Notes: generated from the letters alone by a model not told the origin. 64,000 nt of DNA from a candidate division WS1 bacterium (GCA_012518355.1 JAAYSP010000072.1:7644-71643), one strand, 5' to 3'. Counted from the stretch's first letter, positions 1,904 through 51,991 are shown. Program-made: numbers and translations.

Positions 1904-1991
1904 GCCGAGGTGGTGGAATTGGCAGACACGCTAGCTTGAGGGGCTAGTGACCGTCTAGGTTGTGCGGGTTCGAGTCCCGCCCTCGGCACCA
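1904..1991 (+). tRNA. tRNA-Leu (anticodon GAG), long variable arm, CCA encoded
   Basis: Manual fold: acceptor GCCGAGG/CCTCGGC, anticodon loop TTGAGGG, T-loop TTCGAGT; aligns to E. coli Leu tRNA architecture. Confidence 0.9.
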
Positions 1992-2009
1992 GCATTGAGG
2001 ATAGTTTGC

Positions 2010-2085
2010 GGGCGGTTAGCTCAGCTGGAAGAGCGCTTCCCTCACGCGGAAGATGTCAGAGGTTCGAGTCCTCTACCGCCCACCA
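2010..2085 (+). tRNA. tRNA-Val (anticodon CAC), CCA encoded
   Basis: Cloverleaf: acceptor GGGCGGT/ACCGCCC, anticodon stem CTTCC/GGAAG with loop CTCACGC, T-loop TTCGAGT. Confidence 0.85.
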
Positions 2086-2088
2086 TAC

Positions 2089-2164
2089 GCGGGAATAGCT
2101 CAGCTGGTAGAGCATCAGCTTCCCAAGCTGAGGGTCGCGGGTTCGAGTCCCGTTTCCCGCTCCA
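2089..2164 (+). tRNA. tRNA-Gly (anticodon CCC), CCA encoded
   Basis: Acceptor GCGGGAA/TTCCCGC, anticodon loop TTCCCAA, T-loop TTCGAGT, discriminator U. Confidence 0.85.
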
Positions 2165-2212
2165 TAGCATGATAAAATTCGGCAGCGCAGTATCCGTTTG
2201 CATGGTTTGCGA

Positions 2213-2288
2213 GCGGGAGTAGCTCAGCTGGTAGAGCGCCACCTTGCCAAGGTGAAAGTCGCGAGTTCGAGTCTCGTCTCCCGCTCCA
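2213..2288 (+). tRNA. tRNA-Gly (anticodon GCC), CCA encoded
   Basis: Acceptor GCGGGAG/CTCCCGC, anticodon loop TTGCCAA, T-loop TTCGAGT. Confidence 0.85.
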
Positions 2289-2297
2289 ATTATTTCA

Positions 2298-2372
2298 GGC
2301 GGCATAGCCAAGAGGTAAGGCAACGGTCTGCAAAACCGTTATTCACCGGTTCGATTCCGGTTGCCGCCTCCA
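2298..2372 (+). tRNA. tRNA-Cys (anticodon GCA), CCA encoded
   Basis: Acceptor GGCGGCA/TGCCGCC, anticodon loop CTGCAAA, T-loop TTCGATT. Confidence 0.85.
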
Positions 2373-7077: not shown

Positions 7078-8649
7078 TCAGCCTCCATTTTTCAACAGAC
7101 CATAGATCAGCGAATCGACTACTGCCTGCCAACTGGCCTCGATGATGTTTTCGTGGACACCGACAGTGCCCCAGCTATCCTCAGCGTCGGCGGTCTGCAC
7201 GAGCACACGTACCGCCGCTTCAGTGCCTTCATCAGCGCGCAGCACTCTGACCTTGTAGTCCACAAGACTCAGCTCTTCTAGTTTCGGGAACAGTTCCGTC
7301 AATGCCTTTCGCAGTGCATTGTCGAGCGCATTCACTGGCCCGGTACCCTCGCCGGCGGTGTGTACTTCTCTGTCTCCGACGGCTACCTTGAGAGTAGCCT
7401 CAGAGTACGGTTCGCTGCCCTCATCAGCTTTGTAGACGGTAATCCGATAGCCGTGCAGGTCAAATGGAGGTAGCAGGCCCTCCTTCAGGCGACGTGCCAG
7501 AAGCTCAAATGTAGCCTCCGCTGCATCAAATTCGTACCCGCTCTTCTCTAGATTCTTGACCTGCTCCAGTACTGTGGCCACCAGGGGGTCGTCACGCTGA
7601 AGATCAGGCCAGATACGTTGGAGCTTGTGCACGATGGTGGAACTTCCGGAGTAGTCCGAAACCAGGATGCGCCGACTGTTGCCCACAGTTTCAGGCTCTA
7701 CATGCTCAAACGATGAGGGTTCTTTCAGCACCGCGTTGACATGCATGCCTCCCTTATGGGCAAAAGCAGATGCCCCGACGTACGGCTGTCGAGTGTCGGC
7801 AGGGAGATTGGCGATCTCGCTCACGAAATGCGCCAACTCGGTTATCTCGGTCAACTGGCCTTCTGGTAGGCAAACTGTGTCCATCTTGAGCTCGAGGTTG
7901 GGGATGATGACACACAGGTTCGCGTTGCCTGACCGCTCGCCGTAGCCGTTGATGGTGCCTTGCACCTGGCTGCAGCCCGCCTGGACTGCGGCCATACTGT
8001 TGGCCACGGCCAGACCGGCATCGTTGTGACAGTGTATGCCAAGTGCAATCTGGCACTCTGCGGCTACCGTCTCGACGATCTCACGTATCTCATCGGGCAG
8101 TGAGCCACCGTTGGTGTCACACAGCACCAGTGCATCCGCACCGCCTCGCTGTGCGGCTCGCAAGCACTCCAGAGCATATGCCGCATCAGCTTTGTAGCCG
8201 TCAAAGAAGTGCTCAGCATCGAACATCACCTCTTCACGATGAGCCTTGAGGTAGGCGATGCTGTCCTCGATCATCTGCAGGTTTTCATCCAGAGAGACAC
8301 GCAGCACTTCAGTGGCATGGAAGTCCCAGCTTTTGCCGAAAATGGTGATGACTGGTGCGCGGCTTGCCAGCAAATCCTGAAGTTGGCTGTCGTCTTCGAC
8401 GTTGATGTTGCCTCGTCGAGTGCTGCCAAATGCCGTGATGCGCGCGGTTTGCCAGGACATATCAGCGGCACGCTGGAAGAATTCGCGGTCACGAGGATTT
8501 GTCTCGTTTGGCCAGCCGCCCTCGATGTATGCAACGCCCACTTGATCCAGCTTCTGCGCGATGCGCAGTTTATCCTCTACGCTGAATGCCACACCTTCTG
8601 CCTGGCAGCCATCGCGGAGAGTGGTATCATATACGTCAACTCTTTTCAT
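7078..8649 (-). CDS. cimA: (R)-citramalate synthase, Geobacter type (LeuA/HCS superfamily)
   Basis: MKRVDVYDTTLRDGCQAEGVAFSVEDKLRIAQKLDQVGVAYIEGGWP N-terminus and about 520 aa length match GSU1798-type CimA; AGGAGG SD 8 nt upstream of the ATG at 8649. Confidence 0.85.
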   Translation of the reverse strand: MKRVDVYDTTLRDGCQAEGVAFSVEDKLRIAQKLDQVGVAYIEGGWPNETNPRDREFFQRAADMSWQTARITAFGSTRRGNINVEDDSQLQDLLASRAPVITIFGKSWDFHATEVLRVSLDENLQMIEDSIAYLKAHREEVMFDAEHFFDGYKADAAYALECLRAAQRGGADALVLCDTNGGSLPDEIREIVETVAAECQIALGIHCHNDAGLAVANSMAAVQAGCSQVQGTINGYGERSGNANLCVIIPNLELKMDTVCLPEGQLTEITELAHFVSEIANLPADTRQPYVGASAFAHKGGMHVNAVLKEPSSFEHVEPETVGNSRRILVSDYSGSSTIVHKLQRIWPDLQRDDPLVATVLEQVKNLEKSGYEFDAAEATFELLARRLKEGLLPPFDLHGYRITVYKADEGSEPYSEATLKVAVGDREVHTAGEGTGPVNALDNALRKALTELFPKLEELSLVDYKVRVLRADEGTEAAVRVLVQTADAEDSWGTVGVHENIIEASWQAVVDSLIYGLLKNGG

Positions 8650-8701
8650 TTGTCTTTCCTCCTGGATACGCCGGGGCCTTTTCGGCTGCGATGTCACCGC
8701 T

Positions 8702-8743
8702 GAAACACAAAACTCCGTCCCTGTTCAATTCAGAGACGGAGTC
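8702..8743 (-). terminator. intrinsic terminator of the T-box leader: stem ACTCCGTC/GACGGAGT followed by UUUUGUGUUU
   Basis: Inverted repeat plus U-tract read on the reverse strand, 52 nt upstream of the cimA ATG. Confidence 0.7.
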
Positions 8744-9018
8744 ATCCGCGGTACCACCCTGGTTACTCCCCCCCGAAAAGGAGGAGCCACTTTGCCAACA
8801 CGGGCCACCTGCGGCCGATGTCGTCTTCAGGATAACGGTAGAAGCTCCGACGAAGTCTACTCGGCCGCCTGTTGTCGGCCAGGCCTTTCGATTCGCAGCT
8901 CGAGGGTGATATTCAGATCGGACTTACCTGCCCGCTCTCACCATCCGGGCTCGCTGTCCGGTATAAACCGACCCTACTTGTCCCCTTCACAGCTTTTACG
9001 TGTCACGACTTAAATTGT
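8702..9018 (-). promoter_or_regulatory. T-box riboswitch leader (tRNA-sensing transcription attenuator) upstream of cimA; candidate specifier AUC-A (Ile) at complement 8908-8910 (CUC-G Leu alternative at 8902-8904)
   Basis: Canonical T-box sequence AACCAGGGTGGTACCGCGG (complement 8746-8764) immediately 5' of and overlapping an intrinsic terminator; about 315-nt leader length; amino-acid biosynthesis gene downstream. Confidence 0.75.
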
Positions 9019-18747: not shown

Positions 18748-19719
18748 TCACCGTGTCTGACTTGGTTTCCGCAATTCTTTCAGCAGGCCGAGTGCCAATG
18801 GCGTCCATGGTGAATCGAACTCTGGCGCCTTCTTGTCGTCGGTCTCAAAAGTCTGAAAAACCTTGATAGCATCTGCATACCGTTCCAGGACGACGAGGCA
18901 TACGCCCTTGTAGTAGCGAGCTTCCAGCAAACGCTCACTGTCCCTGTAGCGCACCATGTAGTCATCGAATTGCTTATATGCAAGGTCCGGATCTTCGGCT
19001 ATCCCGAGGACTATAGTGTCGAAGTAGGCATCGGCAAAAGCTCCGGTTTCGTTGTTTGGATCCAGTTGCATGGCCTTTTCCAGATGGGTTCTGGCATCTT
19101 CGAATTGCTCCATCTCCATGAGTATGTGCCCCGCCTGGGCATGCGCCTGCGCGGTTGGGCTCTCAGCGATTTGGCGCATCGCTGAGACCAGTTGAAGTAT
19201 GGTCTGTACCCGGCTGACGAACCCTTTGGCCGCCACAAACTCAAGGTCACTCTGCGAATCGTGGCTCGGTGGTGGCGAGACTGTACCATAGTCGCGGAAA
19301 TACTCCCTGCCATTTGCATCAAGGAACAGCAACACCGGTAGGATGGGTTGTGCGACCAACCAGGTATTATCTGCACTGACCACGCCAACCTGGTAGCGCC
19401 TGCAGAAATCAGCGGAGGTCGGGTTATCCACATCGGCGGCATATAGCTCTAGACTGTCAAGTTGCGCGACGACATCCGGATGAGGCAAAATGGAGTCAAT
19501 CAGTGTCTCACACGCTTCATGATTCTGGCGATAGCCGATGGCCAGAATTGGCTTGCCGCTTACGGTCGCCGCTGCCCGTGCTGCCGACAGCGATTCGTGC
19601 CAGGTGACCTCAGATGTAAGTGGCGCGGCCAAGATGGCGTGTGATGTGACAAGCAACAGCAAAAGCACAAGAGAAAGAAAAAGCAACCGCCAACAGACCA
19701 TAACGCTACCTCGGCGCAT
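18748..19719 (-). CDS. secreted hypothetical protein with thioredoxin-like N-region and TPR-like C-region
   Basis: Signal peptide; ATG at 19719 with a GAGGAT SD. Confidence 0.55.
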   Translation of the reverse strand: MRRGSVMVCWRLLFLSLVLLLLLVTSHAILAAPLTSEVTWHESLSAARAAATVSGKPILAIGYRQNHEACETLIDSILPHPDVVAQLDSLELYAADVDNPTSADFCRRYQVGVVSADNTWLVAQPILPVLLFLDANGREYFRDYGTVSPPPSHDSQSDLEFVAAKGFVSRVQTILQLVSAMRQIAESPTAQAHAQAGHILMEMEQFEDARTHLEKAMQLDPNNETGAFADAYFDTIVLGIAEDPDLAYKQFDDYMVRYRDSERLLEARYYKGVCLVVLERYADAIKVFQTFETDDKKAPEFDSPWTPLALGLLKELRKPSQTR

Positions 19720-19975: not shown

Positions 19976-21253
19976 ATGATCAGCGATACTTCCATCAAGA
20001 CGACCACTCTGAAACTGACGCAAGCCGCAGGTACGGTGTTGCTCATATGCCACGTGATAGTGTTCAGACTTGTCGGGCTACTGCCAACCCGCGACAGTCT
20101 ACAGCAAACAGCGGATGCGGATGCAATAGCGCTGGAGTGGCTTTCGTTTGTGGCCTGGCCGACTTTTCTGCTGGCAGGCATCGTCCTGTGGCTGCTGCCC
20201 CAACTCAAAGGGCGGTCAGGGGCATACTGGAGTCGTACGGTTATCATCCTGTCATTGTTGTTGGTGGGCATCTTCACAGAGACGGCAACGCGTATGACTG
20301 TCCTGGCTTCATTTGCCGAAGGCAGCCTCATGGTCATAGGGGCTGCGCTGCAAACAGCGGCTGTGGTTGCCTATCTGCTGGCAATCAGGCAGGATACCAC
20401 CCACTCACTTCACCCCTCAATACACGATATGTTGCTCCAAATTGGCGCCGTTTGGCTGGTAGGACTGCTATCACTTCATACAGCCCAAACTGCAGCATTA
20501 GTCGCTGGCTTTGACAGCATCTTGCTTGTGCAGATGCACGTTGGCCTATACAAAGGATTGGCATTGGGTTTTGTCGGCAACACAGCTCTATGGCTGCTCA
20601 TATCCACCATGCCACATCTCTTAGACACGCGGGAGCCGCCAGTCCGCTCATCAGGAGTTATAGTCACATACAATCTTCTGTTGATCGCCTGGATTTTCGG
20701 TGAAATCTGGTCACTGCATTACCCGTACACCTGGGTGCGACTGCCTCTTACACTCGTAGGCATTGCCTTCGGCGTCTCAGTGGTACGTTTACTCTCACAT
20801 CTGCGGGTGTTCGATTATTTGCGCGCACCTGTCAGAGACAAGCGACGCCTGGTCGTGCGGACATCTGTGGCTGCATTTGTGGCCAGCATATTGGCCTCGG
20901 CTGCCATCATCGCGGCTCTCGGCGTGTGGTTGGGGAGCACTCAGCAGGTTGTCTGGCCGTACGTGGGTTATGCGTTGCGTGAGCTTACTCAGCTTGGCAT
21001 GGGGAGTTACATTCTCGCTGCAATCCTGATAGCGCTGACCGAGCCTTCTCCGGTGGACGGCAAGCGATATCTATTGCTCTGGGGTCTTATCATCGTAGTC
21101 GGGATTGGACTGGTGTCCACAGTCTTAGTGAGCGCATTCGGAGCTGTTGCCCCTACAGACTTCTATCCGTGGTCCCAACTAGCCACGCGAATTGGCGCTG
21201 TAGGACATCTGATCGTTGCGTTGTGGTTGGTGGCGAGCATGACGCGCAGCTAG
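19976..21253 (+). CDS. hypothetical polytopic integral membrane protein (about 10-12 TM)
   Basis: Continuous hydrophobic helices; the overlapping reverse-strand ORF 19765-20337 is judged spurious. Confidence 0.6.
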   Translation: MISDTSIKTTTLKLTQAAGTVLLICHVIVFRLVGLLPTRDSLQQTADADAIALEWLSFVAWPTFLLAGIVLWLLPQLKGRSGAYWSRTVIILSLLLVGIFTETATRMTVLASFAEGSLMVIGAALQTAAVVAYLLAIRQDTTHSLHPSIHDMLLQIGAVWLVGLLSLHTAQTAALVAGFDSILLVQMHVGLYKGLALGFVGNTALWLLISTMPHLLDTREPPVRSSGVIVTYNLLLIAWIFGEIWSLHYPYTWVRLPLTLVGIAFGVSVVRLLSHLRVFDYLRAPVRDKRRLVVRTSVAAFVASILASAAIIAALGVWLGSTQQVVWPYVGYALRELTQLGMGSYILAAILIALTEPSPVDGKRYLLLWGLIIVVGIGLVSTVLVSAFGAVAPTDFYPWSQLATRIGAVGHLIVALWLVASMTRS

Positions 21254-21692
21254 CCAGCCCGGGGTGAATAGCCCCCACTCACGGGGTTTGCCTGGCTGTT
21301 TCCTTACCCCGCCTGCAGTGCAACCAATACACGTCCTACCCTACTGGACATGAACCTAGCAAGCACAAAAGATACTTGCCTATCGATGGCTCCTGAAACG
21401 GTGGTTTGGCGGAGAGGATCACCGGGAAGCTACATGCTCACATTGTCTGGCACAGGTGATTTGGTCTACGCTACGGGGAGTAGTATGGAAACAAGCCAGA
21501 CAAGGCAGTGGTAGACCAAACCTCCTGTGTCTGTCAGGTTTGATTACTGGTAGGGGCCAAACTCACCACGCTGGACATGATATACCTAGCAAGGCAACGC
21601 CATGGCATTACTGGCGCTGTGAGCAGCGGACTCTAACCGCTAATCAGATCCCCGTTGCTCTTCCCCCCGCTTACTTCGGCTGTAATCGCAGC

Positions 21693-22286
21693 CTATGCGG
21701 CATCTGGCGACTCCAGCGGCTCGGGCTGGGGCAAGATATCCACCGAACCGGCCAGAGTGCCCATGGGGATTTCGTACGAGCGCCCCTCCGAATGGTAACC
21801 AAGTTTTTCCAAAGCCTGTGTACTACACTCTCGTACAAGCGTTGCGGGTGCAACACCCACGGTAGCTGTTGTCCCGGTAATTAGAAGTGGCACGGCCTGC
21901 CGGCTACCTATCTCACCAAGCGTCCATGCTGCGCGTGCGCGGAAAGGTTCGGCCAGGTGGGCGTTTGCCAGGATACGCCCCACATCCTCGACGATGCGGT
22001 TAGACACACTGCGGCCATCTCGTTCGATCTCACGGCCCTTTTTGACTAACGCTACTGCAGCCAGGTCACAGAGTTGGTCGTCCTTTTCGAAGACGTCAAG
22101 CAACTTTTCTATGACCCGTGAATCATCAAGACTAGCCATAGTCTGGATGGCCTGTGTTTTCACCACGACTTCTTGTGATTCGATGTCCCTGCTAAGTTGC
22201 TCCATCGGGTCAATTGCACATCCAGCAATCATCATGACTGCTACCAAACTCAACAGCAACGCTGCACATCGCTGATTGTGCTGCAT
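21693..22286 (-). CDS. HEAT-repeat (PBS lyase-like) lipoprotein
   Basis: Lipobox LLLSLVAVMMIAGC; E/Z-type HEAT repeats; ATG at 22286 after a GGAGGA SD. Confidence 0.65.
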   Translation of the reverse strand: MQHNQRCAALLLSLVAVMMIAGCAIDPMEQLSRDIESQEVVVKTQAIQTMASLDDSRVIEKLLDVFEKDDQLCDLAAVALVKKGREIERDGRSVSNRIVEDVGRILANAHLAEPFRARAAWTLGEIGSRQAVPLLITGTTATVGVAPATLVRECSTQALEKLGYHSEGRSYEIPMGTLAGSVDILPQPEPLESPDAA

Positions 22287-22358
22287 GTATCTTCCTCCGC
22301 ATGACATATAGGCAATATGACAACATTGGCGGTTAGTGTTCCGCCATTTTTGCGGCAA

Positions 22359-23327
22359 TCAAACATCCAACAATCCAAGATTGCTACGAGCTTCTTTTGC
22401 AGCCTCACGAACCCAAAAGTGAGTGTCTTCCTCGGCAGAAGCCAGTGCCTGCGCTACCCTGGACTGGATCGCTTCGGGTACGATGCTAACTTTCCCCAAG
22501 GACTGCATCGCGGCGATGCGGACATCACCAACACTATCGCCGCATGCGAGAAGCATACCTTCAAGTGCTGTGAGTTGCTCGCTTTCCTTTTCATTTCTAG
22601 CAGCCAAATCACCGAGAGCATACACCGCGGCCACACGCACTGATGGAGCTATTTCTACGGCCTCGTCAACGGCCTGAGCCAGGCCTTCTACAGCCTCCGA
22701 CGACTGCAGGTAGCCGAGAGCCACTGCTGCGGCCAATCGCAGTGTCTGAGTTGTATCCTCTACCTCAGCCGGTGCTTCGTCCGCCTCTTCATCAGATATC
22801 GCGGGAGCAGGTACTGGTGGACGGGCGGCAAGTACTGCAAGCAACGGGATGGTTGCCTCTGCCGCCTCAAATGTACCTAAAGTGGTCGCGGCCCCTTCAC
22901 GCACTAGCAGGTCTTCCTGCTCATCTGACAGTACTGTTATCAATGTCGGTATTGCCTGTTTTGCACCAAGTCTGCCCAGTGCAAGTGTCACGTCTTTTCG
23001 GACGTACTCATCTTTATCGTTCTGGAGCAGCGGTGTCAACAGTTGTCCATGTTCAGGGCCGCCACACATCGCGATGAGCATGACGGCATTAGAGCGCACC
23101 AGGGGGTTAGCGTTGGTCAGCAGCGTCTCAACCATGGATACAACCCGCTCACCCTGGCCCGACAGAGCCTCGATGGCGCGGGTAGCCGCTGCGGTATCGT
23201 CTCCATCGAGAGCCTGTACGTGCTCTCGTATCTTGGCTGCACCCTGGTAAGTTGTGACGGCATAGACTCCGCCTAACACGATAATCAGGACCGCAATTGC
23301 TGTTATACTTCGCGTGTTCACTGGCAA
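22359..23327 (-). CDS. HEAT-repeat (PBS lyase-like) protein with N-terminal TM anchor and acidic linker
   Basis: Repeated LGxLG/AVxALG motifs; TTG start; 72-bp gap to the downstream lipoprotein gene. Confidence 0.7.
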   Translation of the reverse strand: MPVNTRSITAIAVLIIVLGGVYAVTTYQGAAKIREHVQALDGDDTAAATRAIEALSGQGERVVSMVETLLTNANPLVRSNAVMLIAMCGGPEHGQLLTPLLQNDKDEYVRKDVTLALGRLGAKQAIPTLITVLSDEQEDLLVREGAATTLGTFEAAEATIPLLAVLAARPPVPAPAISDEEADEAPAEVEDTTQTLRLAAAVALGYLQSSEAVEGLAQAVDEAVEIAPSVRVAAVYALGDLAARNEKESEQLTALEGMLLACGDSVGDVRIAAMQSLGKVSIVPEAIQSRVAQALASAEEDTHFWVREAAKEARSNLGLLDV

Positions 23328-23400
23328 TCAATCCTTGCTTAGGCCGGGCCGACGTATAGTAGCGCCCGAGTTCGGAATCCGTATGGTAGACTACAAACGA

Positions 23401-26028
23401 CTATCTCTTCTGGGTGCGAATACGCTCAGTCAACTGTTCGGCACGGGCTGCTTTTGCCGGGTCAGGTTTCTCCTGCTCGTGCATATGCTTGATGGCCTTC
23501 AGCGACCTATCGTCCCCTATACACTGCATGCTGATAGCCAGCCACATGCGGTAGTCGGCATCCTGCGTGCGATTACGAGTGTCTAGCACTGCCTCGGTAG
23601 CCTGACGCCCGATGCCCCCAATGGTGGCGGCTATCCACGGCTTGAGGCTATCGGATACTTTATCGAGTTCTTCCATCAGTGTTTTGACGGGGCCACTGCC
23701 CATCATAGACAGCGCGATCGCAGCCTGCATGCGTATATCTTCACCGCTACCAGGCTCTGTCAGGATTTCCACGAGCAACTTGCCGGCAGGTGACAGTTCG
23801 GATGAGACTTGCTGCTCCATTTCTTCCTGACTGGATTTCATCCCAATAAGCGCCACTGACTGGGCGGCACCGGCAGCAAATTCTCCGCCGGCCTTCAGGA
23901 GAGCACCTAGGACAGGGATCCCCTCTGCGTGTCCGATCCGGCCGAGACCTCGAATTGCATAGTGACGAACCGATGGCGAGGCTGTCTCGTCGCCGGCGGC
24001 AGCAGTCAACAGCTGGGCGACACTCCCCCGGATCCGGTCGTCAAATTGTGTTTCTCGGACTCCACCGATAGCAGTCTCGGCTGTCTGAACGGTCGATTCG
24101 CTTTCGAACACCAAAGATATCGCAGCGCGGTACTTCAAGTCGGTATCGGCACTGTCGAGCAATTTGGCTAGCTCATCGCGTGGGTGTCCAGACCGCCAGT
24201 TGGCGAGGGCATCCATTGCCATATCTCGAACTGCAGGCGAGGATGACTGCAGGGCCTTGACAAGCAACTCTACACCATCGGCGGAGGCGATCTTGCTGAC
24301 TGCCTTGACGACAGCTATGGCCAGGCCAGGCTGCACGTCGGTGTAGACAGATTTGAGAGTGGTGATGGCTTGTGGGTTACGTGTGTGTCCAAGGGCTGCC
24401 ACTGCAGCGACACGTGTAGGCACCGGTTCAGCGCTATTGCCTGCAAGCTCAGTCAACTGCGCGAGTGCATCCGTACCTAGCGCGCCGAGAGCGATAGCGG
24501 CCCAGTCAGCTTTGGTCGGATTAGTCGGCGCCTGCTTGAGCGCGTTGATCAGAGCGGGAATTGCCGGCTTACCAATTCGCACCAGTGCCTGTTCCGCCAT
24601 ATGAGCGACACGTTCATCGGTACTGCCCAAAGCTTCAGTGAGCACCGGGACCGCAGCTGGACCACACTTGGCCAGTGCATCACGGGCGGCGTAGTACACC
24701 CGCCAGTCACCATCGTGCAGAGCGCGGGCTAACGGCGCAGCGATTACGGCGGCATGGGAAGAGAGGTTGTGTCCGCTTTGTGCTCTCAGCGCTTCTGCTG
24801 CTGCCCGGCGTACTGCCGCGTCAGCGGCTCCCAGTGCCTGAGCAAGGGGCGGGACAGGGGTGGAGCCGGCAACGTTGGAAAGGGCGCGGATTGCTAGTAG
24901 TTGCGCTTCGCTCTGTCCGCTAGCGATTACTGTAGCAAGAGCCGGTACGGCAGCAGGGCCAAGTCTCTCAAGAGCGCTGACCAACTGGCTGGATATACCA
25001 GCGCGGCTATGGAGCAGGGCATGGGTCAGCGGACCAGCAGCGGCTGGATCGCCCAGTCTACCCAGTGCTTCGGCCACAGCGCCACGGACCTCGGAGTGCT
25101 GCCCGGTATCCTGCAAAGTGGCAATCAGCGGGCCAGCAGCTCCGTTTACACGGCCCACTTCGCCGAGACGTCCCAGGCTGAGTGCAGCCTGACGTCGGAC
25201 GGCATAGCTTCCGTCATTGCGAAGCCGGTCCAGCAACGGTGGCAACACCTGTAGCGCGCCCTCCTCACCTATCGGAGAAGCAACAGTCTGGTCGGCTATA
25301 ACGCCTAATAGAGACGTCCCCACGCCTCGAATGTCGGTGTTTGGCGATGTCAGCAGTTCAGTGATGATGGCAGGAATGGCTATGGCATTCATGGCCCTGA
25401 GAGCTGCTTGAGCGGCGGCCCGCTCACGCAAGTAGGCGTCAGCGTCCTGATCACCGCTTGGGCCTGTCTTCTGGATCACTGTGATGACGGCAGCCCGCGC
25501 AGGCTCCCCAATACCTCCAAGAATCGCACTTGCGCCAGCCCTGGCGAAATCATCCCACGCCGACAGGACGGGGAGAAGATAAGGAACCGCCGGCTCTCCG
25601 ATTGCGATCAGCACGGGATTCACTCCAGCACGGGTGTTCGCATCCTTGTCCTTGAGCGCTTCGATCAAGGTAAAGATGGCCGAATTGCCGGCTTGTGTGA
25701 GAATTTCGGTGATGCGCGCTTGAACCGGGGCATCAACGAATTTGAAAACCGTGAGCAGTTGATGCCATGCCTGGGGCGTGCTTATCTGTGCCGCGGCGGC
25801 TATCGCACGATCTTGCACCCAACGGGGCTGGTCCTTGATTGCCTCTGCTAGCGTGCGACTACGTATAAGCTCATCTACGGCACGAACCTGCTGGGTGGGC
25901 GTGCCGGTGGCCAGTTGTTCCTGTAGCCTGGCCATCCGTTGGCTTCGGCCGACCCCCCACACGAGAAGACAGGCGAGGGCGCCGATGATGATTACCCAGT
26001 TAATCTGCCGCCGGGTGCTTTCGTCCAC
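23401..26028 (-). CDS. large HEAT-repeat (PBS lyase-like) protein with N-terminal TM anchor (about 875 aa, more than 20 repeats)
   Basis: Pervasive AxxALGxxG repeats; GTG start at 26028 placed 9 nt after a GAGGAG SD (the ORF-track TTG at 26037 abuts the SD). Confidence 0.75.
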   Translation of the reverse strand: MDESTRRQINWVIIIGALACLLVWGVGRSQRMARLQEQLATGTPTQQVRAVDELIRSRTLAEAIKDQPRWVQDRAIAAAAQISTPQAWHQLLTVFKFVDAPVQARITEILTQAGNSAIFTLIEALKDKDANTRAGVNPVLIAIGEPAVPYLLPVLSAWDDFARAGASAILGGIGEPARAAVITVIQKTGPSGDQDADAYLRERAAAQAALRAMNAIAIPAIITELLTSPNTDIRGVGTSLLGVIADQTVASPIGEEGALQVLPPLLDRLRNDGSYAVRRQAALSLGRLGEVGRVNGAAGPLIATLQDTGQHSEVRGAVAEALGRLGDPAAAGPLTHALLHSRAGISSQLVSALERLGPAAVPALATVIASGQSEAQLLAIRALSNVAGSTPVPPLAQALGAADAAVRRAAAEALRAQSGHNLSSHAAVIAAPLARALHDGDWRVYYAARDALAKCGPAAVPVLTEALGSTDERVAHMAEQALVRIGKPAIPALINALKQAPTNPTKADWAAIALGALGTDALAQLTELAGNSAEPVPTRVAAVAALGHTRNPQAITTLKSVYTDVQPGLAIAVVKAVSKIASADGVELLVKALQSSSPAVRDMAMDALANWRSGHPRDELAKLLDSADTDLKYRAAISLVFESESTVQTAETAIGGVRETQFDDRIRGSVAQLLTAAAGDETASPSVRHYAIRGLGRIGHAEGIPVLGALLKAGGEFAAGAAQSVALIGMKSSQEEMEQQVSSELSPAGKLLVEILTEPGSGEDIRMQAAIALSMMGSGPVKTLMEELDKVSDSLKPWIAATIGGIGRQATEAVLDTRNRTQDADYRMWLAISMQCIGDDRSLKAIKHMHEQEKPDPAKAARAEQLTERIRTQKR

Positions 26029-27335
26029 TGATGTCAACTCCTCAGAAGCAGCGGAGCGCCCCGGCCTATCCGGGGCCTCCCAATAGTGCCGATCATAGAC
26101 TTACGCGTGAACTGGATTACTCTTCCAGCCACCTAATCGTGCAATTCCGCAACGACGCGCCGGAATCCTTCTCCGTTTTGCGCCGTATACCTTCTCCTGA
26201 ATCAGAAAATCCCAAAAAGCAAAAACAGTAGATCACCTGACCGTCTCACCGGCTATCACGGACTGTCGAAGGCTGGCGCCATTATATGCTCTCACGGGCC
26301 TGCTGACAAGAGTGTCTGTCATAATTGCCAGGGTGGAACTGGCGATGAGGCATCTCCAGACCGGGTCACAAGTGAGCCAGTAGCGTTCTTCACAACAATC
26401 AACGCTATCCGACAATGCTCTGCTAACACGCCATCACCTGATGGTGTCGACGGACGCCCGAGCACTGTTTCTTCCAACACTGCTTCAACGCAGAATTCCC
26501 AAAAGCAGCGCGCCTGGCGCGCCTCACGGGCCATTTGTTGGCGAGTAGCGTAAAATCTACTGCATCGCGAAAGGGTGCTTTGCTGATGCCATCGCAAAAT
26601 CTGCGCATATACTGCTACAGCTACTGCGTATATAGGATATACGGTAGATATATCGTAGGCACCAGCCGGGGGATAGCCACGAAGCGCCTTACCGGGGCGC
26701 AATGACGGGAGCCCACTATCCGGAGGCTGCGCCGATCATCTGCCTCTGTGAGAATACAACTGAAAATAGTTGGCAGTAGTGGCTAATGCTTACTTGGATA
26801 GCGCTATTTGTGTTACAATTGAGCGACAGTTCGGGCACTTGTGTCCTACAGCACGGATCGTCTTTGTGCTGTCCATGCTCGGCAAGATGCTTACCGCCGG
26901 CCCGGCTCCTGCTACGGCCTAGACTCTGGGCGATTGTACTGAACTCTATAGTGTTCTTGCACAGGTCGCCAAAACCATAGAGAGTGTGGGGCAATCGTAG
27001 CTAGAACCGGGCCTGTGTTGTGAAGTAGTGTGCTAGATATGTTGAGTGCCCAACAGAATAAGCCAGCACCAATACGCCTGACCTGATGGCCATCAGCAGC
27101 CTGTTCGACAGCAGATGTTATCGCTGTTACCAGTTACCAGGAGCACGCAGCAACTTTTTCTGATGACAGGTGAAGTCGGATCTGAACCGACAGCAATTGG
27201 CAATTGTACCTGGTGCGATAACTGGTTGGGCAACTGATTGATTTATTTATGAGTATCGACACTGAACAGCATACACGCCACAAAACCCGCACGAGTTCCA
27301 TTCACCGGCGCAACCGCCTGATGAGGGAGCACAGC

Positions 27336-28355
27336 ATGAACCATCACCGGCCGTTGACCGACCGCGCATCGTCATACACAAGACAGGCATTTGCCATTGC
27401 CATACTGTTGGTGGTGAGCGCATTGACTGGCTGTCGACCCACGGATGCTGTAGGCCGTTCACGCTCCGATGCTGACCACAATGACAGCACTAAAGGGGAC
27501 GCATTCAAAGCTCTAGGCCTACAACAGCTTGAAGCGGGCAACTACAATGATGCCTATGTTGCCTTCAAACACGCCGCAGCGTTGACAGGTGATGATTACG
27601 ATATTGCGTGGGGAATGGCTCAGGTCAACTCGAAGCTCGGTGATGACATCGAAGCATTAGACTGGATCAACCAGGCCTTGTCCCTACAGCCGGAGTCTGC
27701 CGAAGTGTTGGAGTTGAAGGGTCGGACGCTGTTGCGACTGGCCCGTTTCACGGAAGCGATAGGCGTACTGGAACGCACCGTACAGACACATCCAGACAAC
27801 ACAGTGGCGTGGCTAAATCTATCGGCGGCCTATGATGCTACCAAGCAGCCCGATAAATCCATGGACGCTGCCCGCTCTGCGATCACGAGTGCACCGGATG
27901 CACCTATCCCCTATTTTGCCATGGGCGACATATACCTGCAACGGGAGCAACTTGCCGAGGCCGAAAAGCAGTATCGTCTTGCGCTCGAAAAAGATTCCGC
28001 CCACGCGGCATCATATCTGCGACTGGCAGCACTGTACATCCGGCAAAACAAGGATCTTGACCAGGCCCGTACATGGGCAATTAAATCTGAAGAGCTCGAT
28101 CCGGGCGATGGCAGCGCCGCATCTGCCGCCGCATGGGTTCTCTTTTTGCAGGATAGGAAGGTCGAAGCCGTCAAGGAAATGGCCAAGACCGCCGAAGCGC
28201 ACCCTCAGAATTACCACATTTGGATGCGGCTGGGACACATTTTGGACGACATGGGCGATAAAGAAATGGCGCAACAGGCCTTTGACACAGGAGCCAGGTT
28301 TGCCCCGCGCGGGGTTAGAAGTGCGGTAGCCGATGACAAACAAGACAGCCAATAG
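27336..28355 (+). CDS. TPR-repeat lipoprotein
   Basis: Lipobox LLVVSALTGC; multiple TPR units; ATG at 27336 after a GAGGGAG SD. Confidence 0.7.
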   Translation: MNHHRPLTDRASSYTRQAFAIAILLVVSALTGCRPTDAVGRSRSDADHNDSTKGDAFKALGLQQLEAGNYNDAYVAFKHAAALTGDDYDIAWGMAQVNSKLGDDIEALDWINQALSLQPESAEVLELKGRTLLRLARFTEAIGVLERTVQTHPDNTVAWLNLSAAYDATKQPDKSMDAARSAITSAPDAPIPYFAMGDIYLQREQLAEAEKQYRLALEKDSAHAASYLRLAALYIRQNKDLDQARTWAIKSEELDPGDGSAASAAAWVLFLQDRKVEAVKEMAKTAEAHPQNYHIWMRLGHILDDMGDKEMAQQAFDTGARFAPRGVRSAVADDKQDSQ

Positions 28356-29461: not shown

Positions 29462-30832
29462 ATGTGCACAGATGCCCGTGTAAGAATTGCGGAACTCGAA
29501 TTAGAGCTGCAAGAGCGGGATACTCACATGGAAGCGATACGCCGCATAAGTGCGGCGCTGTGCCAGGTCACGAAAGTTGATGAACTGGTCCGCCGCGCTC
29601 TGGACACCTCGCTGCAGGTGGTAAGCGCTGATGCCGGATCCGTAATCCTGTATGATCCGGACAAAGACAAGCTGATATTCGAGTATGTGGTGGGTGGTGC
29701 TGCTGACATCCTCACGGGTACGGAATTGAGCCCCAATCAGGGCATAGCGGGTGCAGTCTTCCAGAGCGGTGAGATTGATGTAAGCGAAGATGTGACCACT
29801 CGCGACAAACATGATCGGGCCGTAGGAGAGAAGGTACACTACGTGACCAAAAACATGGTCACAGTGCCGCTTCTTAGTGCCGGAGGTAAGCGGTTTGGCG
29901 TCATGCAAGTGCTAAACAAAACTGATGGCACGTTCAAAGACAGGGACGTAGCGTTGCTAGACACTCTCGCCTCGCAAATCGCTACTGCGCTGGAGACAGC
30001 TCGACTTCACGAAGAGGCGCGGCTAGCCGAGGTCATACGCTTCATCGGCAACCTCAGCCATGACGTTAAGAACATGATGACACCGGTGCAGACCGCCGCC
30101 GAGACGCTCGAATTGATTGCATCAGACACATGGAGCGATTTCGACACCGCCGTGTCAACGCTGCCGGATCGAGATGAAGTGGCCGACACCATCGAAGGGT
30201 TGCGACAACTGCTCCCCGAGATGACCGAGATGATGAAAAACGGCTCTGAGGCCGTGCAGGGCCGGATGGCAGAGGTCTCAGCCGCTGTAAAAGGCATGGT
30301 CACCGAGCCTGATTTCCATCTCGAACACATCCGCACCGTAGTAGATCAGGTAGTGCCGATGTTGGCGGTGGTGGCCAAAAAAGAGCATATCACCATCCAA
30401 ACCGACATTCCGGACGACATAAAACCGGCGATAATGGACGCCAAGCAGATGTATAACGCAGTGTACAACCTGGTGAACAACGCCCTACAGGCCTGTCCTC
30501 CTGATGCCACCATCACGGTGCGTTGCCGCAGCGAGATAAATGGCAGCTTCCCTGATGGCGGTTATCTGGAGGTAGCTGTGCAGGACACCGGCGAGGGGAT
30601 GCCCGAGGAAGTCCGCCACAAGCTTTTCACTGATGACGCCATCAGTACCAAACCGATGGGGACCGGACTTGGGACGAAAATCGTGAAAAACGTGGTAGAT
30701 GTCCACGGAGGGACCGTCTGGGTCGAAAGCACTCTGGGACAGGGCACCACCATCACGCTCCGCATTCCCATCGAAGGCTCCTCTGAAGCGCGTGATCGCA
30801 TGGCAAAGAACAGACAGCAGGAGGAGCAGTGA
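29462..30832 (+). CDS. cytoplasmic GAF-domain sensor histidine kinase (no cognate response regulator adjacent)
   Basis: GAF region; H-box LSHDVKNMMTP; HATPase_c N, G1 and G2 boxes (NLVNNALQA, DTGEGM, GTGLGT). Confidence 0.85.
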   Translation: MCTDARVRIAELELELQERDTHMEAIRRISAALCQVTKVDELVRRALDTSLQVVSADAGSVILYDPDKDKLIFEYVVGGAADILTGTELSPNQGIAGAVFQSGEIDVSEDVTTRDKHDRAVGEKVHYVTKNMVTVPLLSAGGKRFGVMQVLNKTDGTFKDRDVALLDTLASQIATALETARLHEEARLAEVIRFIGNLSHDVKNMMTPVQTAAETLELIASDTWSDFDTAVSTLPDRDEVADTIEGLRQLLPEMTEMMKNGSEAVQGRMAEVSAAVKGMVTEPDFHLEHIRTVVDQVVPMLAVVAKKEHITIQTDIPDDIKPAIMDAKQMYNAVYNLVNNALQACPPDATITVRCRSEINGSFPDGGYLEVAVQDTGEGMPEEVRHKLFTDDAISTKPMGTGLGTKIVKNVVDVHGGTVWVESTLGQGTTITLRIPIEGSSEARDRMAKNRQQEEQ

Positions 30833-30836
30833 GCGG

Positions 30837-32006
30837 ATGAATTTCGTCTTCTATAACCCAACACGCCTCGTGTTCGGCGATGGGAGATTTCATGAATTGA
30901 GCGAACTGGCCGCCGGCCTGGGCAACCGCGCACTGCTGGTGACGGGGCGTTCGGCCATGCAGAAAACCGGGCATCTGGACAATGCGGTGGAGATGCTTGA
31001 GCAAGCCGGAGCGAGAGTCACCGTGTTCGATCACATACCACCTAACCCCACGCTTGAGGCTATCGAGGACGGCGGACGCCTCGCTCGCGAGACAGACTGT
31101 GATTTCATCGTCGGTCTGGGTGGGGGCAGTGCTATGGACAGCGCCAAGGCCATTGCCGTGGCGGCAACACATGACTGCAACCTGCGCGAATTCCTGCTAC
31201 CCGGAGAAAACGGCGTCAAACGCCAACCTACTGATGACACTTTGCCCGTAATTGCTATCACCTCAACCGCCGGCACCTCTTCCGAACTGACGCCATTCGC
31301 AGTTATCACCATGTCTGACACCTGCGAGAAGTCAGCCATGGGTGGTCCGGCACTGTATCCGCATGTGGCCATCGCGGATCCGCAACTGACCCGGAGTCTG
31401 CCGCCACGGATTACCGCTTCGACCGGTATGGATGTGATGTGCCATGCTCTGGAAGGCTACGTGTCTACTGTTGCAAACCCGATAACGGACGTGCTGGCAC
31501 TGCATGCAATTGAACTCGTGGCGCTCCATCTCCCCCATGCAGTGGCTGACGGCGGTGATGAAGATGCTCGCCGTGGCATGATGCTGGCCAACTGCCTTGC
31601 CGGATACGTGCTCTCACAAAACGGCACCAACCTGATGCACGCACTGGAGCACCCCATGAGTGGCCGATACCCTGACTTGCCTCATGGGGAGGGCCTCTGT
31701 GCCGTACTGTCTGCCTGGGCAGAGCTTATGGCAGAGCGTCAGCCCGACCGCCTTGCAGCGGTGGCTCGGCGGATAGGAGTACAGGAGGCTGACGATGTAC
31801 GGGCGGCTGCTCACACTGCGGAAGCGTTGAGCCAACTGCTCGCACAGGTGGGGATGGATTTGTGCCTGAACCAGTTGGGCGTCGAACCACACATGCTGGA
31901 CACGCTCGCAGATGACGCCCTGCGGTACATGCACCATGCACTTGCTAAAACACCGGGGCAGGTGACGCGCGAGCATCTCACCGACATACTGCAAGCGAGT
32001 TACTAG
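30837..32006 (+). CDS. iron-containing alcohol dehydrogenase family protein
   Basis: GGGSAMDSAKAIA motif and metal-binding His cluster; start 4 nt after the HK stop with a GGAGGAG SD. Confidence 0.85.
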   Translation: MNFVFYNPTRLVFGDGRFHELSELAAGLGNRALLVTGRSAMQKTGHLDNAVEMLEQAGARVTVFDHIPPNPTLEAIEDGGRLARETDCDFIVGLGGGSAMDSAKAIAVAATHDCNLREFLLPGENGVKRQPTDDTLPVIAITSTAGTSSELTPFAVITMSDTCEKSAMGGPALYPHVAIADPQLTRSLPPRITASTGMDVMCHALEGYVSTVANPITDVLALHAIELVALHLPHAVADGGDEDARRGMMLANCLAGYVLSQNGTNLMHALEHPMSGRYPDLPHGEGLCAVLSAWAELMAERQPDRLAAVARRIGVQEADDVRAAAHTAEALSQLLAQVGMDLCLNQLGVEPHMLDTLADDALRYMHHALAKTPGQVTREHLTDILQASY

Positions 32007-32028: not shown

Positions 32029-32868
32029 ATGACTTCCGCTCCACTGCAACGCTGGACAATCGCCAGGCCTGCTGAGCTCTCCGGATTGGGCGTGCGCACC
32101 GGCAGACACATCACAGTGCGTTTTTTGCCCGCAGAGGCCTACAGTGGTATCACTGTAACGCGCACAGACCTGGATATGACGTGGCCTGTGGATCTAGATC
32201 ATGCCCTTGATGTGCCCAATAGCACCTGCATCGGCGACCACAGCGGCATGGTCGCTTTCGTCGAGCATGTGTTAGCTGCATTGTGGGCTGCAGCCATCAG
32301 CGATGCGCAAATCGTGGTGGATGGGCCAGAGATACCGCTGCTCGACGGCAGTGCGCTACCGTGGTATGGTGCGGTGACTGCCGCCGGGCGCAGGCAACTC
32401 GACGGCGAGTGGACACCGTTGAAGTTAACCGAACCGGTTTTTGTGCTGGGAGACAACACAGCGCTGATCGCGTTGCCAGCGGAACGGCTCCGGCTCAGCT
32501 ATGCACTGCTGCACAGTCATCACATGATAGGCCATCAGTTCGCACACTTTGACGCCGAATGTGACAGCTTCGCCGATGACCTGGCACCGGCTCGAACTTT
32601 TGCCACCGGAGCGGAGCTGGAGCAACTGCAGCAGGCGGGGTTGATAGTTGCAGGCAGTGAAGAGAACTGCCTGATCGTCTATGATGACCGATATTCGTCT
32701 GCGCTTTTTGCAGGCAATGCCATGGCCCGGCATAAATTGGTGGACATGGCCGGAGACTTGTACTTGCTCGGGCGTCGCGTACATGCCCATGTGCTGGGAT
32801 ACCGGACAGGGCACACGGACAATCGTGCTCTGGCCCACCGCATCGCCGAGCAACAGCAGGCGCCCTGA
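32029..32868 (+). CDS. lpxC: LpxC-family deacetylase (UDP-3-O-acyl-N-acetylglucosamine deacetylase-like)
   Basis: Catalytic EH (FVEHVLAAL), HKxxD zinc site (ARHKLVDMAGDL) and the C-terminal His (GYRTGHTDN) are all conserved relative to E. coli LpxC. Confidence 0.75.
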   Translation: MTSAPLQRWTIARPAELSGLGVRTGRHITVRFLPAEAYSGITVTRTDLDMTWPVDLDHALDVPNSTCIGDHSGMVAFVEHVLAALWAAAISDAQIVVDGPEIPLLDGSALPWYGAVTAAGRRQLDGEWTPLKLTEPVFVLGDNTALIALPAERLRLSYALLHSHHMIGHQFAHFDAECDSFADDLAPARTFATGAELEQLQQAGLIVAGSEENCLIVYDDRYSSALFAGNAMARHKLVDMAGDLYLLGRRVHAHVLGYRTGHTDNRALAHRIAEQQQAP

Positions 32869-49377: not shown

Positions 49378-49512
49378 CTACGGCAACTCCTCATCGATAT
49401 GAACTGGTCTTCGCGTACGAAGTCAGTATTCCACTCCGAGACCGCCTTTCCCTGTCTGTTGCAGCTAATAAACCAGGATGTTTACCTATTGACCTTGCAT
49501 ACTGGTGGATTT

Positions 49513-51603
49513 ATGGGCTTACTTACGGCTTTTTGCGCCGCCTGGAGGCAAACCGTAAAACGGCGTGGAGGAATTATCCGTACTAAGGGCGAAGTGGCTC
49601 CTGCCGCAGCAAGTACCGTATTCCGTTGCATTGCTGGAGGACTTGGCGTGACGTCTCGCACTCTGCTTCTATCGGTTGTCCTGGCTCTGGCTGCGATAGC
49701 GTGGATGCACCAGGCCAGTTTGGTACAAACCCCCGGACAGATATATGCTCCGGTGTACCTTCTTTCGGTGCCTCCGGTGCCGGCGATTTTTTGTCTACTG
49801 CTACTGGTGATCTTGGCACCTGTGCTGCCTCGACTAAGTAGGAAGCTCAAAAGCTTCAGCAAACAAGAGATGCTGCTGATATATATGGTCCTCGTAGTCG
49901 CTGTTCCGCCGGTGACTTTCGGCGTCGTCTCCAGTATGCTTCCGGCAGCATCGGCAGCAAATTACTTTGCCGCCCCTGATAACAACTTCCAGGCACTGGC
50001 CGACAATCTGCCGAAGTGGTTCGCTCCTCAGAATCCAGAGATCATCCGCACCATGTATGAGGGCAGCCCGGATGGCACCATCCCCTGGCGGCAGTGGGCG
50101 TATCCTCTGGCGATGTGGACCGGTTTCATGGCTCTGCTTTATTTCACAGGTCTATGCCTGGTCACGATTTTCCGCAAGCAGTGGTCTGAAAACGAACGGC
50201 TTCGCTACCCACTGCTTTTCATACCTCTGAGCATCGTCGAGAAAGAGGCACCGGGAAGCCACACGCAGTTTTTTCGCAATTCGCTTGTGTGGATGGGGAT
50301 CGGCATCGTGGTACTTCACCACGCTCTAAACATAGCCAATGCCTATAACCCCGCAGTCATGGCACTGAAGGACCGCTACGGATTGGGTGCACAGATCTTC
50401 ACCGAGTACCCGTGGACCGCGTACCGAGGCATCACCTTTTTCCATAGACCACAGGTCATCGGTCTGGCCTACTTCGTCCCCCTCGACATACTCTTTTCCG
50501 GGTGGTTCTTCTTTCTCCTGCAGCCCACTCTGCGACTGATTTCCGACCTGTTCGGCTTCACTGCCTCGGCGGGTTTTCCCCACACCCTGCCGCAATCTGC
50601 GGGGGGCTACGCAGGCATGACCCTGATACTGTTCTGGGTAGCACGCCACGAAATCGTGAAAATGCTTCGCAAAGCTTTCGGAGGCGACCGCAGCATTGGC
50701 GATTCCAGTGAGCCGATGTCACACCGTGCTGCACTCATCGGAGCTCTGGGCGGTATGCTGGCGATAATCATATGGGTAAGCGCGATGGGAGCCAACTGGG
50801 CCCATGCTACAGCCTACTTTCTCATGGTCGTTGGCTTTGGCCTGGTATATGCTCGCATACGTGCAGAAGCTGGCATACCTACCATGTGGGGCTATTTTGG
50901 CGGCCATGTGCGTACGCTAAGATACTTCCTCGATGTACGACAAATCATGCCCCAGAGCTCTCTGTCCAACCTGGCTGTCCTGACGTCTTTCGACTGGCTG
51001 ACTGAGGGCTACTTTCCGGGCCAGTGGGGATATGTGGCAGAAAACCAGAAACTGGCTGAAGACATCAAAATCAAGCCTCGAATTATCGTGCCTGTGATGA
51101 TGGTTGCCTTCGTCCTGGGCTGTGTTTTTGCATACTACCTGATCCTGCAATCGTACTATACATACGGCGCCATGGTATTGCATGGCGGCACCACTCGCGG
51201 CGGATATGCGATTATCAACGCAGTGAACGCCTGGACTCAGGCGTCATCTATGGTAGACACTGGAGGTGCGCCCAACCGAGAGTACGCCATCGCCATGATT
51301 AGCGGTGCCGCTTTAACCGTTCTCCTGGTGCTGGGCAGATGGCGCTGGCTGCGGCTGCCCTTTCACCCCCTCGGGTATATCTCCTGCATCCAGTACGGGT
51401 ACTGTCTATGGGGGCCGTTTTTCGTGGTCTGGATCATCAAGGGCCTGGTGCACCGGCTGGGAGGGGCACGTCTCTATCGTCAATTGATGCCGTTTTTTCT
51501 CGGACTTGCATTTGGGGATCTACTGTGTGGTGGCATAACCTGGATTCTCATGGCGCTTTTGGGCCCTGATATCACAGCGGGTTACATGGTGCAGTTCGGA
51601 TAG
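49513..51603 (+). CDS. hypothetical large polytopic membrane protein (about 697 aa)
   Basis: Long hydrophobic ORF divergent from the ECF gene; start set at the internal ATG at 49513, because the ORF-track ATG at 49399 is only 21 bp from the divergent gene and is followed by rare codons. Confidence 0.55.
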   Translation: MGLLTAFCAAWRQTVKRRGGIIRTKGEVAPAAASTVFRCIAGGLGVTSRTLLLSVVLALAAIAWMHQASLVQTPGQIYAPVYLLSVPPVPAIFCLLLLVILAPVLPRLSRKLKSFSKQEMLLIYMVLVVAVPPVTFGVVSSMLPAASAANYFAAPDNNFQALADNLPKWFAPQNPEIIRTMYEGSPDGTIPWRQWAYPLAMWTGFMALLYFTGLCLVTIFRKQWSENERLRYPLLFIPLSIVEKEAPGSHTQFFRNSLVWMGIGIVVLHHALNIANAYNPAVMALKDRYGLGAQIFTEYPWTAYRGITFFHRPQVIGLAYFVPLDILFSGWFFFLLQPTLRLISDLFGFTASAGFPHTLPQSAGGYAGMTLILFWVARHEIVKMLRKAFGGDRSIGDSSEPMSHRAALIGALGGMLAIIIWVSAMGANWAHATAYFLMVVGFGLVYARIRAEAGIPTMWGYFGGHVRTLRYFLDVRQIMPQSSLSNLAVLTSFDWLTEGYFPGQWGYVAENQKLAEDIKIKPRIIVPVMMVAFVLGCVFAYYLILQSYYTYGAMVLHGGTTRGGYAIINAVNAWTQASSMVDTGGAPNREYAIAMISGAALTVLLVLGRWRWLRLPFHPLGYISCIQYGYCLWGPFFVVWIIKGLVHRLGGARLYRQLMPFFLGLAFGDLLCGGITWILMALLGPDITAGYMVQFG

Positions 51604-51912: not shown

Positions 51913-51991
51913 TGGCGGGGCTGACGGGACTCGAACCCGCGACTTCCACCTTGACAGGGTGGCACTCTAAAACCGACTGAGCTACAGCCCC
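51913..51991 (-). tRNA. tRNA-Asp (anticodon GTC), CCA encoded
   Basis: Acceptor GGGGCTG/CAGCCCC, anticodon loop CTGTCAA, T-loop TTCGAGT; close to E. coli tRNA-Asp. Confidence 0.85.

Follow-up and report, generated by a model that had tools for sequence, protein, structure and literature searches.

A conserved operon of three membrane-anchored HEAT-like repeat proteins in uncultured Armatimonadota, a predicted envelope scaffold

The DNA analyzed here is a stretch of 64,000 nucleotides (nt) from a candidate division WS1 bacterium (GCA_012518355.1, JAAYSP010000072.1:7644-71643), in the following referred to as the window. It carries three consecutive genes, designated P1, P2 and P3, which encode genuine PBS-type HEAT-like repeat proteins and are best explained as one operon that is inherited vertically and confined to uncultured Armatimonadota lineages. 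The three proteins are predicted to form a non-enzymatic alpha-solenoid scaffold, tethered to the cytoplasmic membrane on its periplasmic face, a reading to which we give an even chance. A first-pass annotation of the window had described three same-strand genes for proteins of 875, 322 and 197 amino acids (aa), separated by gaps of 72 bp and lacking an enzymatic partner in the operon. The corresponding open reading frames (ORFs) were found as follows:

23401-26028, minus strand: P1, 875 aa, GTG start at 26028
22359-23327, minus strand: P2, 322 aa, TTG start
21693-22286, minus strand: P3, 197 aa, ATG start

The genes are arranged head to tail with measured gaps of 73 and 72 nt, no gene for an enzyme lies within the operon, and all three products are acidic proteins. 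The longest ORF of P1 begins with a TTG three codons 5' of the GTG, at 26037. The start was nevertheless set at GTG 26028, because several orthologous ORFs begin exactly at the Val or Met matching this codon and because the residues EEL, seemingly kept upstream of it in relatives, represent the translated ribosome-binding site GAGGAG (26038-26043). For P2 the true start may be a GTG two codons downstream of the TTG, which is better spaced from the ribosome-binding site AAGGA and would yield a protein of 320 aa. An exact database look-up of P2 with the TTG start returned no record; the source-genome gene call (GCA_900198705.1) is shortened to 258 aa and does not contain the transmembrane (TM) helix.

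The repeat content ascribed to the proteins was borne out by searches with hidden Markov models (HMMs). All three proteins exceeded the Pfam gathering scores, which are 27.7 bits for HEAT_2 and 20.9 bits for HEAT_PBS: P1 reached 193.2 bits (E 8e-58), P2 94.6 bits (E 4e-27) and P3 33.3 bits with HEAT_2, and 62.5, 50.3 and 31.0 bits, respectively, with HEAT_PBS. An in-house sequence profile recognized 14-16 repeats in P1, seven in P2 and two to three in P3. The more than 20 repeats initially claimed for P1 hold true structurally, as the AlphaFold2 model (predicted local distance difference test, pLDDT, 91.1; predicted template modelling score 0.68) comprises 49 helices, corresponding to about 24 hairpins. 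P1 thus consists of a 10-residue N-terminal tail (MDExTRRQI-N/T-W), a TM helix at about residues 11-27, which in the model runs on as a single helix to residue 41, and the solenoid of about 24 HEAT-like hairpins. In P2 an N-terminal tail of 4-6 residues is followed by a 21-residue TM helix and about seven HEAT-like repeats, with an acidic, Pro-rich insertion at about residues 165-190. In the AlphaFold2 model of P3 (pLDDT 92.4) a signal helix precedes four hairpins, and the C-terminal tail is non-helical and placed with confidence; the folded domain begins about three residues past the cysteine predicted to be lipidated, and the tail is extended and conserved (GRxFEIPMGxL...LPxPxP). Further conserved columns include K82-R85 and R116-R129 in P3 and R69/W70 in P1.

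For the comparison of gene content, 82 loci were gathered and their ORFs were compared with the proteins of the window. The closest loci belong to metagenome-assembled genomes of Armatimonadota, and all homologs with a named source derive from Armatimonadota or Armatimonadia, in addition to one from "candidate division WS1". Assembly GCA_900198705.1 includes a 1.8-kb contig that is identical to the window. Two lengths, 1,797 nt and 2.65 Mb, were given under the name of its record, FZPS01000091.1 (locus L078), with flanking genes that are unrelated; the longer form resembles a fragmented assembly joined end to end, and the flanks of this locus were excluded from the comparison.

An ortholog of P3 was present in 60 of the 82 loci. 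Wherever enough upstream DNA was available, it was preceded by P1 and P2, in the order P1-P2-P3 and on the same strand, and no locus contained one member of the trio alone where the sequence permits this to be judged. The few short loci without detectable P2 are contigs of a deep clade with less than about 750 nt upstream of P3. Beside the window, 19 non-identical complete trios were found, together with many truncated by contig ends, with P3 identities down to 34%. The gaps between the called genes range from 6 to 76 nt across the relatives. In the deep clade (P3 identity 34-37%) the order is kept and the proteins are larger, with about 1070-1130 aa for P1, 365-402 aa for P2 and 220-257 aa for P3. 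The co-localization of homologs, which had been put forward as a check of the trio, therefore held in all loci of sufficient length.

Homologs with identities of 34-99% amounted to about 50 for P1, 20 for P2 and 120 for P3. Among the 54 matches of P1 at E <= 1e-40, the last three are generic HEAT proteins, one of them archaeal. Relatives covering the full length comprise 856-947 aa, or about 1040 aa in a deep clade, and the former length is maintained even at 35-40% identity; a defined structure is therefore favored over a drifting repeat array. The P3 family is small and sharply bounded, with about 125 clusters of about 190-200 aa, and is the most specific marker of the trio. An exhaustive P3 profile search yielded about 25 representatives (at 50% identity) which are single-domain proteins of this size, while the other matches were giant HEAT proteins that were matched repeatedly. 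In one divergent lineage (L082, 1051-9135) P3 comprises 460 aa and carries a beta-rich C-terminal extension, whose sole Pfam match, CarboxypepD_reg, is below threshold (E 0.053) and reveals no function. The trio of L082 is located about 1.5 kb downstream of mreC-mreD, with a gene for a major facilitator superfamily transporter in between.

Comparison of the sequence upstream of P1 with the relatives L080 (P1 91% identical) and L081 (72%) revealed the following elements:

26281-26309, minus strand: sigma-70-type promoter, TTGTCA-17 nt-TATAAT, matching 11 of 12 consensus positions
26029-26273, minus strand: 5' leader of about 245 nt, its start deduced from the promoter

In this alignment of three sequences the hexamers of the promoter are invariant amid diverged DNA. 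Conservation within the leader is otherwise confined to a GC hairpin of 7 bp (arms at 26070-26076 and 26058-26064) and, just 3' of it, the ribosome-binding site of P1. CUCC:GGAG pairing might mask this site. Because the gene order is conserved, the gaps are short and one conserved promoter lies 5' of P1, the three genes are regarded as an operon. The folding stability of the leader is no greater than that of shuffled sequences (z = -0.45), and a search of 21200-27300 against Rfam gave no match even at E <= 1; on these grounds neither the long upstream region nor the spacer 3' of P3 is taken to contain a riboswitch or other structured RNA. The non-coding flanks noted in the first-pass annotation were likewise found. 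Upstream, the non-coding stretch measures 1.22 kb to the longest ORF of a divergently oriented gene for a tetratricopeptide repeat (TPR) lipoprotein, or about 1.3 kb if this protein starts at its lipoprotein signal, as its L080 ortholog does. A hidden gene in this region was also discarded: none was called in L080 or L081, and conservation is limited to the promoter and the block at the ribosome-binding site.

The first-pass annotation had further placed a TM helix or lipobox at the N-terminus of each protein and had concluded that all solenoids are displayed outside the cytoplasm. The anchors are well conserved: the TM helix is kept in 49 of 50 relatives of P1 and in 18 of 18 of P2, and the lipobox cysteine of P3 is retained in 119 of 120. 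The signal peptide of P3 ends in a lipobox that reads MMIAG-C23 in the window. The pattern [LVI][ASTVI][GAS]C is matched by 116 of the 120 P3 relatives; LPGC or LWGC stands in this position in three others, and a further one is truncated. G22, C23, D26 and P27 are conserved to at least 90%, and the conserved motif x-[IVL]-D-P-M-E directly follows the cysteine. Judged by these features, P3 is an exported lipoprotein with predicted acylation. The window also encodes LpxC (32029-32868), and lipid A is therefore made; the host probably has an outer membrane and a periplasm. For P2 the orientation is probably N-in/C-out: acidic residues are lacking in its N-terminal tail, two of them come after the helix, and 18 of 18 relatives have this orientation by the net-charge rule. 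The conclusion drawn earlier thus stands for P3 and fits P2, but for P1 the charges are divided.

The N-terminal tail of P1 (MDExTRRQITW) contains two Arg and two acidic residues. The charges flanking the helix are balanced and the charge rules split the relatives; the odds that the solenoid of P1 lies on the periplasmic face are roughly even. Export via the twin-arginine translocation (Tat) system was considered in view of the sequence TRRQITW and rejected, since the RR pair is not invariant (RQ, RH or KR in about nine of 49 relatives) and the following segment is strongly hydrophobic. P2 of the window has a single Arg, not a twin-arginine, and was rejected as a Tat substrate as well.

A split topology, in which P1 and possibly P2 are oriented N-out/C-in as a cytoplasmic scaffold and P3, with or without P2, is periplasmic, would link a cytoplasmic platform to a periplasmic lipoprotein via the TM helices. 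We consider this arrangement, the strongest of the alternatives, unlikely, yet several properties of P1 speak for it and count against a wholly periplasmic trio. On average 3.2 Lys and Arg residues follow the TM helix of P1 and 2.1 precede it. The C-terminal flank is opened by an RR or RK pair in most orthologs, including L082, which is unusual for a translocated flank. According to the charge-difference rule, 22 of 49 relatives are N-out, 16 N-in and 11 neutral, with a mean of about zero. Moreover, the 10-residue tail is highly conserved (R6, Q8 and W11 at least 90%), as if it contacted something, and N-terminally anchored cytoplasmic repeat proteins such as LapB/YciM and EzrA exist. Against the split stand the two Arg in the tail, which disfavor its translocation, the 16 relatives that are N-in and the 11 that are neutral, and the secreted nature of the conserved neighbors. 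In addition, P3 is exported and P2 appears N-in/C-out, and operon partners with the same type of repeat usually share a compartment.

The preferred reading, a scaffold on the periplasmic face, was chosen because P3 is exported, P2 scores as N-in/C-out and the recurrent neighbors are secreted TPR proteins. The three proteins would jointly serve as a protein-binding platform at the periplasmic face of the cytoplasmic membrane. The long binding surface would be supplied by P1, with P2 and P3 as smaller adaptors kept near the membrane. Such a platform might serve envelope biogenesis or maintenance together with the adjacent secreted TPR proteins and, by analogy with other repeat scaffolds of the bacterial envelope, would hold partners and catalyze nothing. 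The earlier proposal of a structural or assembly system is a reasonable guess. There is no evidence of a new mechanism.

The genes adjacent to the trio in the window are the following:

27249-28355, plus strand: TPR lipoprotein, lipobox LTG-C, divergent from P1, likely true start near 27336
19976-21253, plus strand: 425-aa polytopic membrane protein with about 12-13 hydrophobic segments, convergent to the trio
18748-19719, minus strand: secreted thioredoxin-like and TPR protein with signal peptide and Pfam TPR matches

They are part of a larger syntenic block, shared with several lineages and composed of the TPR lipoprotein (divergent), P1, P2 and P3, the polytopic protein (convergent), the thioredoxin-like/TPR protein, an M20 peptidase, PfkB, Jag and YidC. 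The TPR lipoprotein matches Pfam TPR families; its NCBIfam matches (PrsT, PilW, Tgl and similar) are all below threshold. Divergent orthologs occur at the same position in L008, L018, L024 and L080, and in at least five loci overall; in the closest clade a large TPR protein is encoded upstream instead. The thioredoxin-like/TPR protein lacks a CxxC motif and has a single Cys (HEAC), and its orthologs show weak or faint Thioredoxin_7 matches. On the strand of the trio and 0.2-3 kb downstream of it, this gene was detected in at least ten distinct loci (L004, L006, L008, L024/26, L033, L038/39, L040, L041, L080 and L081); L001, L018 and L054 lack it in the vicinity of the trio. The 425-aa polytopic protein, for which no Pfam, NCBIfam or PDB match was obtained, is fast-evolving. 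It has clear orthologs in L080, L081 and L018 and a weak colinear relation (E 1e-5 to 1e-6) to convergent proteins of 432-463 aa in L004, L006 and L033; different genes occupy this position in the remaining loci. In the deep clade, genes for an ATP-binding cassette (ABC) ATPase, an ABC-2 permease and a TM-anchored TPR protein directly follow P3 on the same strand (L048 3239-6299, L050 10947-13906, L051 9560-12689) and may belong to the same operon as the trio.

Several observations on the surroundings weigh against a common envelope function. None of the neighbors is universal, the TPR and polytopic neighbors being missing in L001, L012 and L054, and the wider synteny is in part just that of a conserved housekeeping region (yidC-jag, pfkB, M20). 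All matches came from contigs of at most 380 kb and none from a named cultured species, which leaves no phenotype to connect with the trio. The three genes might be separate HEAT-like paralogs with unrelated binding roles, which are adjacent only by virtue of a conserved origin-proximal housekeeping block. Consistent with this, yidC, jag, pfkB and the M20 peptidase gene are syntenic across several lineages, and the likeness between P3 and P1 (hhalign probability 95.6%, 18% identity) is that of generic repeats. We nevertheless regard it as improbable: in L001, L012 and L082 the trio is intact, with the short gaps described above, although all flanking genes differ; the order holds even in the deep clade; and the single conserved promoter precedes P1, with no member standing alone at the loci where this can be judged.

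A third explanation takes the annotation of such repeats as PBS lyases at its word, the proteins being tetrapyrrole-handling enzymes of the E/F lyase type which add bilin or haem to an exported protein or remove it. The best curated matches are indeed CpcF, NblB and CpcE, CpcE/F (5n3u) appeared as a weak match in the profile search of the PDB, and among the frequent neighbors are the thioredoxin-like protein and one whose TPRs weakly match the CcmH/CycH type. However, P1 scored only 88 bits against a cut-off of 220 (CpcF), 66.2 against 300 (NblB) and 53.6 against 330 (CpcE) on the NCBIfam equivalog models, and P2 and P3 scored below P1. These matches reflect the shared repeat consensus, because the best PDB matches, by sequence profile as well as by fold, are artificial consensus alphaRep proteins. 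Neither a phycobiliprotein gene nor a cytochrome or haem-biogenesis gene was present among the scanned ORFs of the window, which make up about half of its large ORFs, or in the flanking sequence of at least ten related loci, and the host is not a phycobilisome organism, in agreement with the non-photosynthetic context assumed at the outset. The solenoids of P1 and P3 have no conserved Cys or His, no Glu is found among the invariant columns of P1, and the thioredoxin-like neighbor is devoid of CxxC. We hold an enzyme of this kind to be very improbable.

Further candidates were rejected. A metalloenzyme of the deoxyhypusine hydroxylase (DOHH) type, with His-Glu metal-binding motifs on the repeats, is not supported, as no invariant or nearly invariant His occurs in the alignments of P1 and P3 and DOHH was only a weak generic match; no threshold of a curated enzyme family was reached by any of the three proteins. 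With respect to anti-phage defense, PADLOC gave only partial, repeat-level matches to HEAT-ARM_XIII, without partner genes, and the neighborhood of the trio is vertically conserved housekeeping rather than a defense context. Finally, the idea that GC-rich DNA had produced the ORFs by chance and that their repeat matches are spurious, named as a possible artifact in the first-pass annotation, can be dismissed as next to impossible, because HMM support is strong and homologs at 34-99% identity exist, those of P1 with conserved length; confident models of two proteins (pLDDT >91) and the conserved ribosome-binding site and promoter agree with this.

Within the known repeat proteins, the trio is most similar to the PBS-type HEAT-like proteins (prototype MTH187, alphaRep), with which it shares the helical hairpin of about 31 residues and the AxxALGxxG-like second helix. 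The characterized representatives are soluble, single proteins, whereas P1, P2 and P3 are anchored by TM helix or lipobox and form a fixed set of three genes. E/F-type phycobilin lyases (CpcE/CpcF, NblB, CpeY) are the nearest curated functional families by sequence; the trio differs from them in scores of at most a quarter of the cut-offs (about 40% for CpcF), in its membrane anchors and in the lack of a conserved residue suggesting chromophore chemistry. For the P1 model, the nearest solved structures identified with Foldseek were CAND1, transportin (karyopherin-beta) and SF3B1, which have a comparable number of about 20-27 repeats. The template modelling scores are just 0.2-0.3, identity is 11-15%, and these proteins differ in curvature, carry no membrane anchor and belong to unrelated biology.

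Envelope scaffolds built from repeats are well known in Gram-negative bacteria, among them YfgM-PpiD at the Sec translocon, LpoA, BamD, CpoB/YbgF and PilW/PilF. By analogy, the trio would resemble them in combining a single N-terminal or lipid anchor with helical repeats that bind partners and are not catalytic, and TPR proteins of comparable build are encoded beside the trio; they consist, however, of TPR or Sel1-like repeats (SLR) instead of HEAT-like repeats, and no sequence relation was detected. In the full-text literature no description of the trio was found, and it belongs to no curated family, in line with its initial assessment as uncharacterized. The sole related item is MXAN_1397 of Myxococcus xanthus, an uncharacterized lipoprotein with PBS lyase HEAT-like repeats that was identified in the fraction of the inner membrane (PMC3222651). 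Like P3 it is described as an exported, lipid-anchored HEAT-like protein of a bacterium with two membranes, and no trio was reported for it. It provides a precedent for PBS-HEAT repeats at work outside the cytoplasm.

The spacer downstream of P3 (21254-21692, 439 nt) contains repeated motifs, as had been noted. A 20-nt motif, CTTGCTAGGT[ATA]TCATGTCCAG, occurs exactly twice, at 21344-21363 and 21571-21593 (minus strand), with zero occurrences expected in the whole window; the similarity between the two copies ends at the core. Between them lies an imperfect inverted repeat of 26 nt (21444-21469 and 21511-21536). Neither the motif nor the inverted repeat is conserved in relatives, and the motif is absent from L080 and L081.

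Elsewhere in the window, a T-box leader (8729-8999, minus strand; 104 bits, gathering score 93) is located directly upstream of a gene for a LeuA-like 2-isopropylmalate/homocitrate synthase (7078-8697, minus strand; HMGL-like and LeuA_dimer domains), an arrangement suggesting that in this Armatimonadota genome a gene of the leucine pathway is controlled by tRNA sensing. Five tRNA genes are clustered at 1904-2372 (plus strand), namely Leu-GAG, Val-CAC, Gly-CCC, Gly-GCC and Cys-GCA, and a separate tRNA-Asp gene is found at 51913-51991 (minus strand). A DUF6785/DUF6784 membrane protein is encoded at 49399-51603 (plus strand); the same domain pair occurs in L008 (10389-12284), about 5 kb from the trio, a recurrence that is probably mere shared synteny. 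The longest ORFs of a GAF-histidine-kinase-like gene (29462-30832) and an Fe-alcohol-dehydrogenase gene (30699-32006), both on the plus strand, overlap by 134 nt. The true start of the dehydrogenase is probably internal, as its L080 ortholog comprises 389 aa.

The analysis turns three separate annotations as "HEAT repeat domain-containing protein" into one co-inherited unit with defined boundaries, anchors, a promoter and frequent partners, and the misleading reading as PBS lyases is removed. If the proteins form an extracytoplasmic complex, they would represent a lineage-specific envelope module made from a repeat type which in bacteria is known almost only from cytoplasmic, soluble proteins, and would give this phylum, which is poorly studied and mostly uncultured, a set of marker genes. 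A more far-reaching interpretation, which we rate as speculative and doubtful, is a dedicated HEAT-based periplasmic envelope machine of these lineages, in which P1, the adaptor P2 and the lipoprotein P3 would assemble with the neighboring secreted TPR proteins and replace the TPR-based systems that model diderms use in envelope assembly or protein hand-over. If this were true, no functional envelope complex made of HEAT repeats would have been described in bacteria before.

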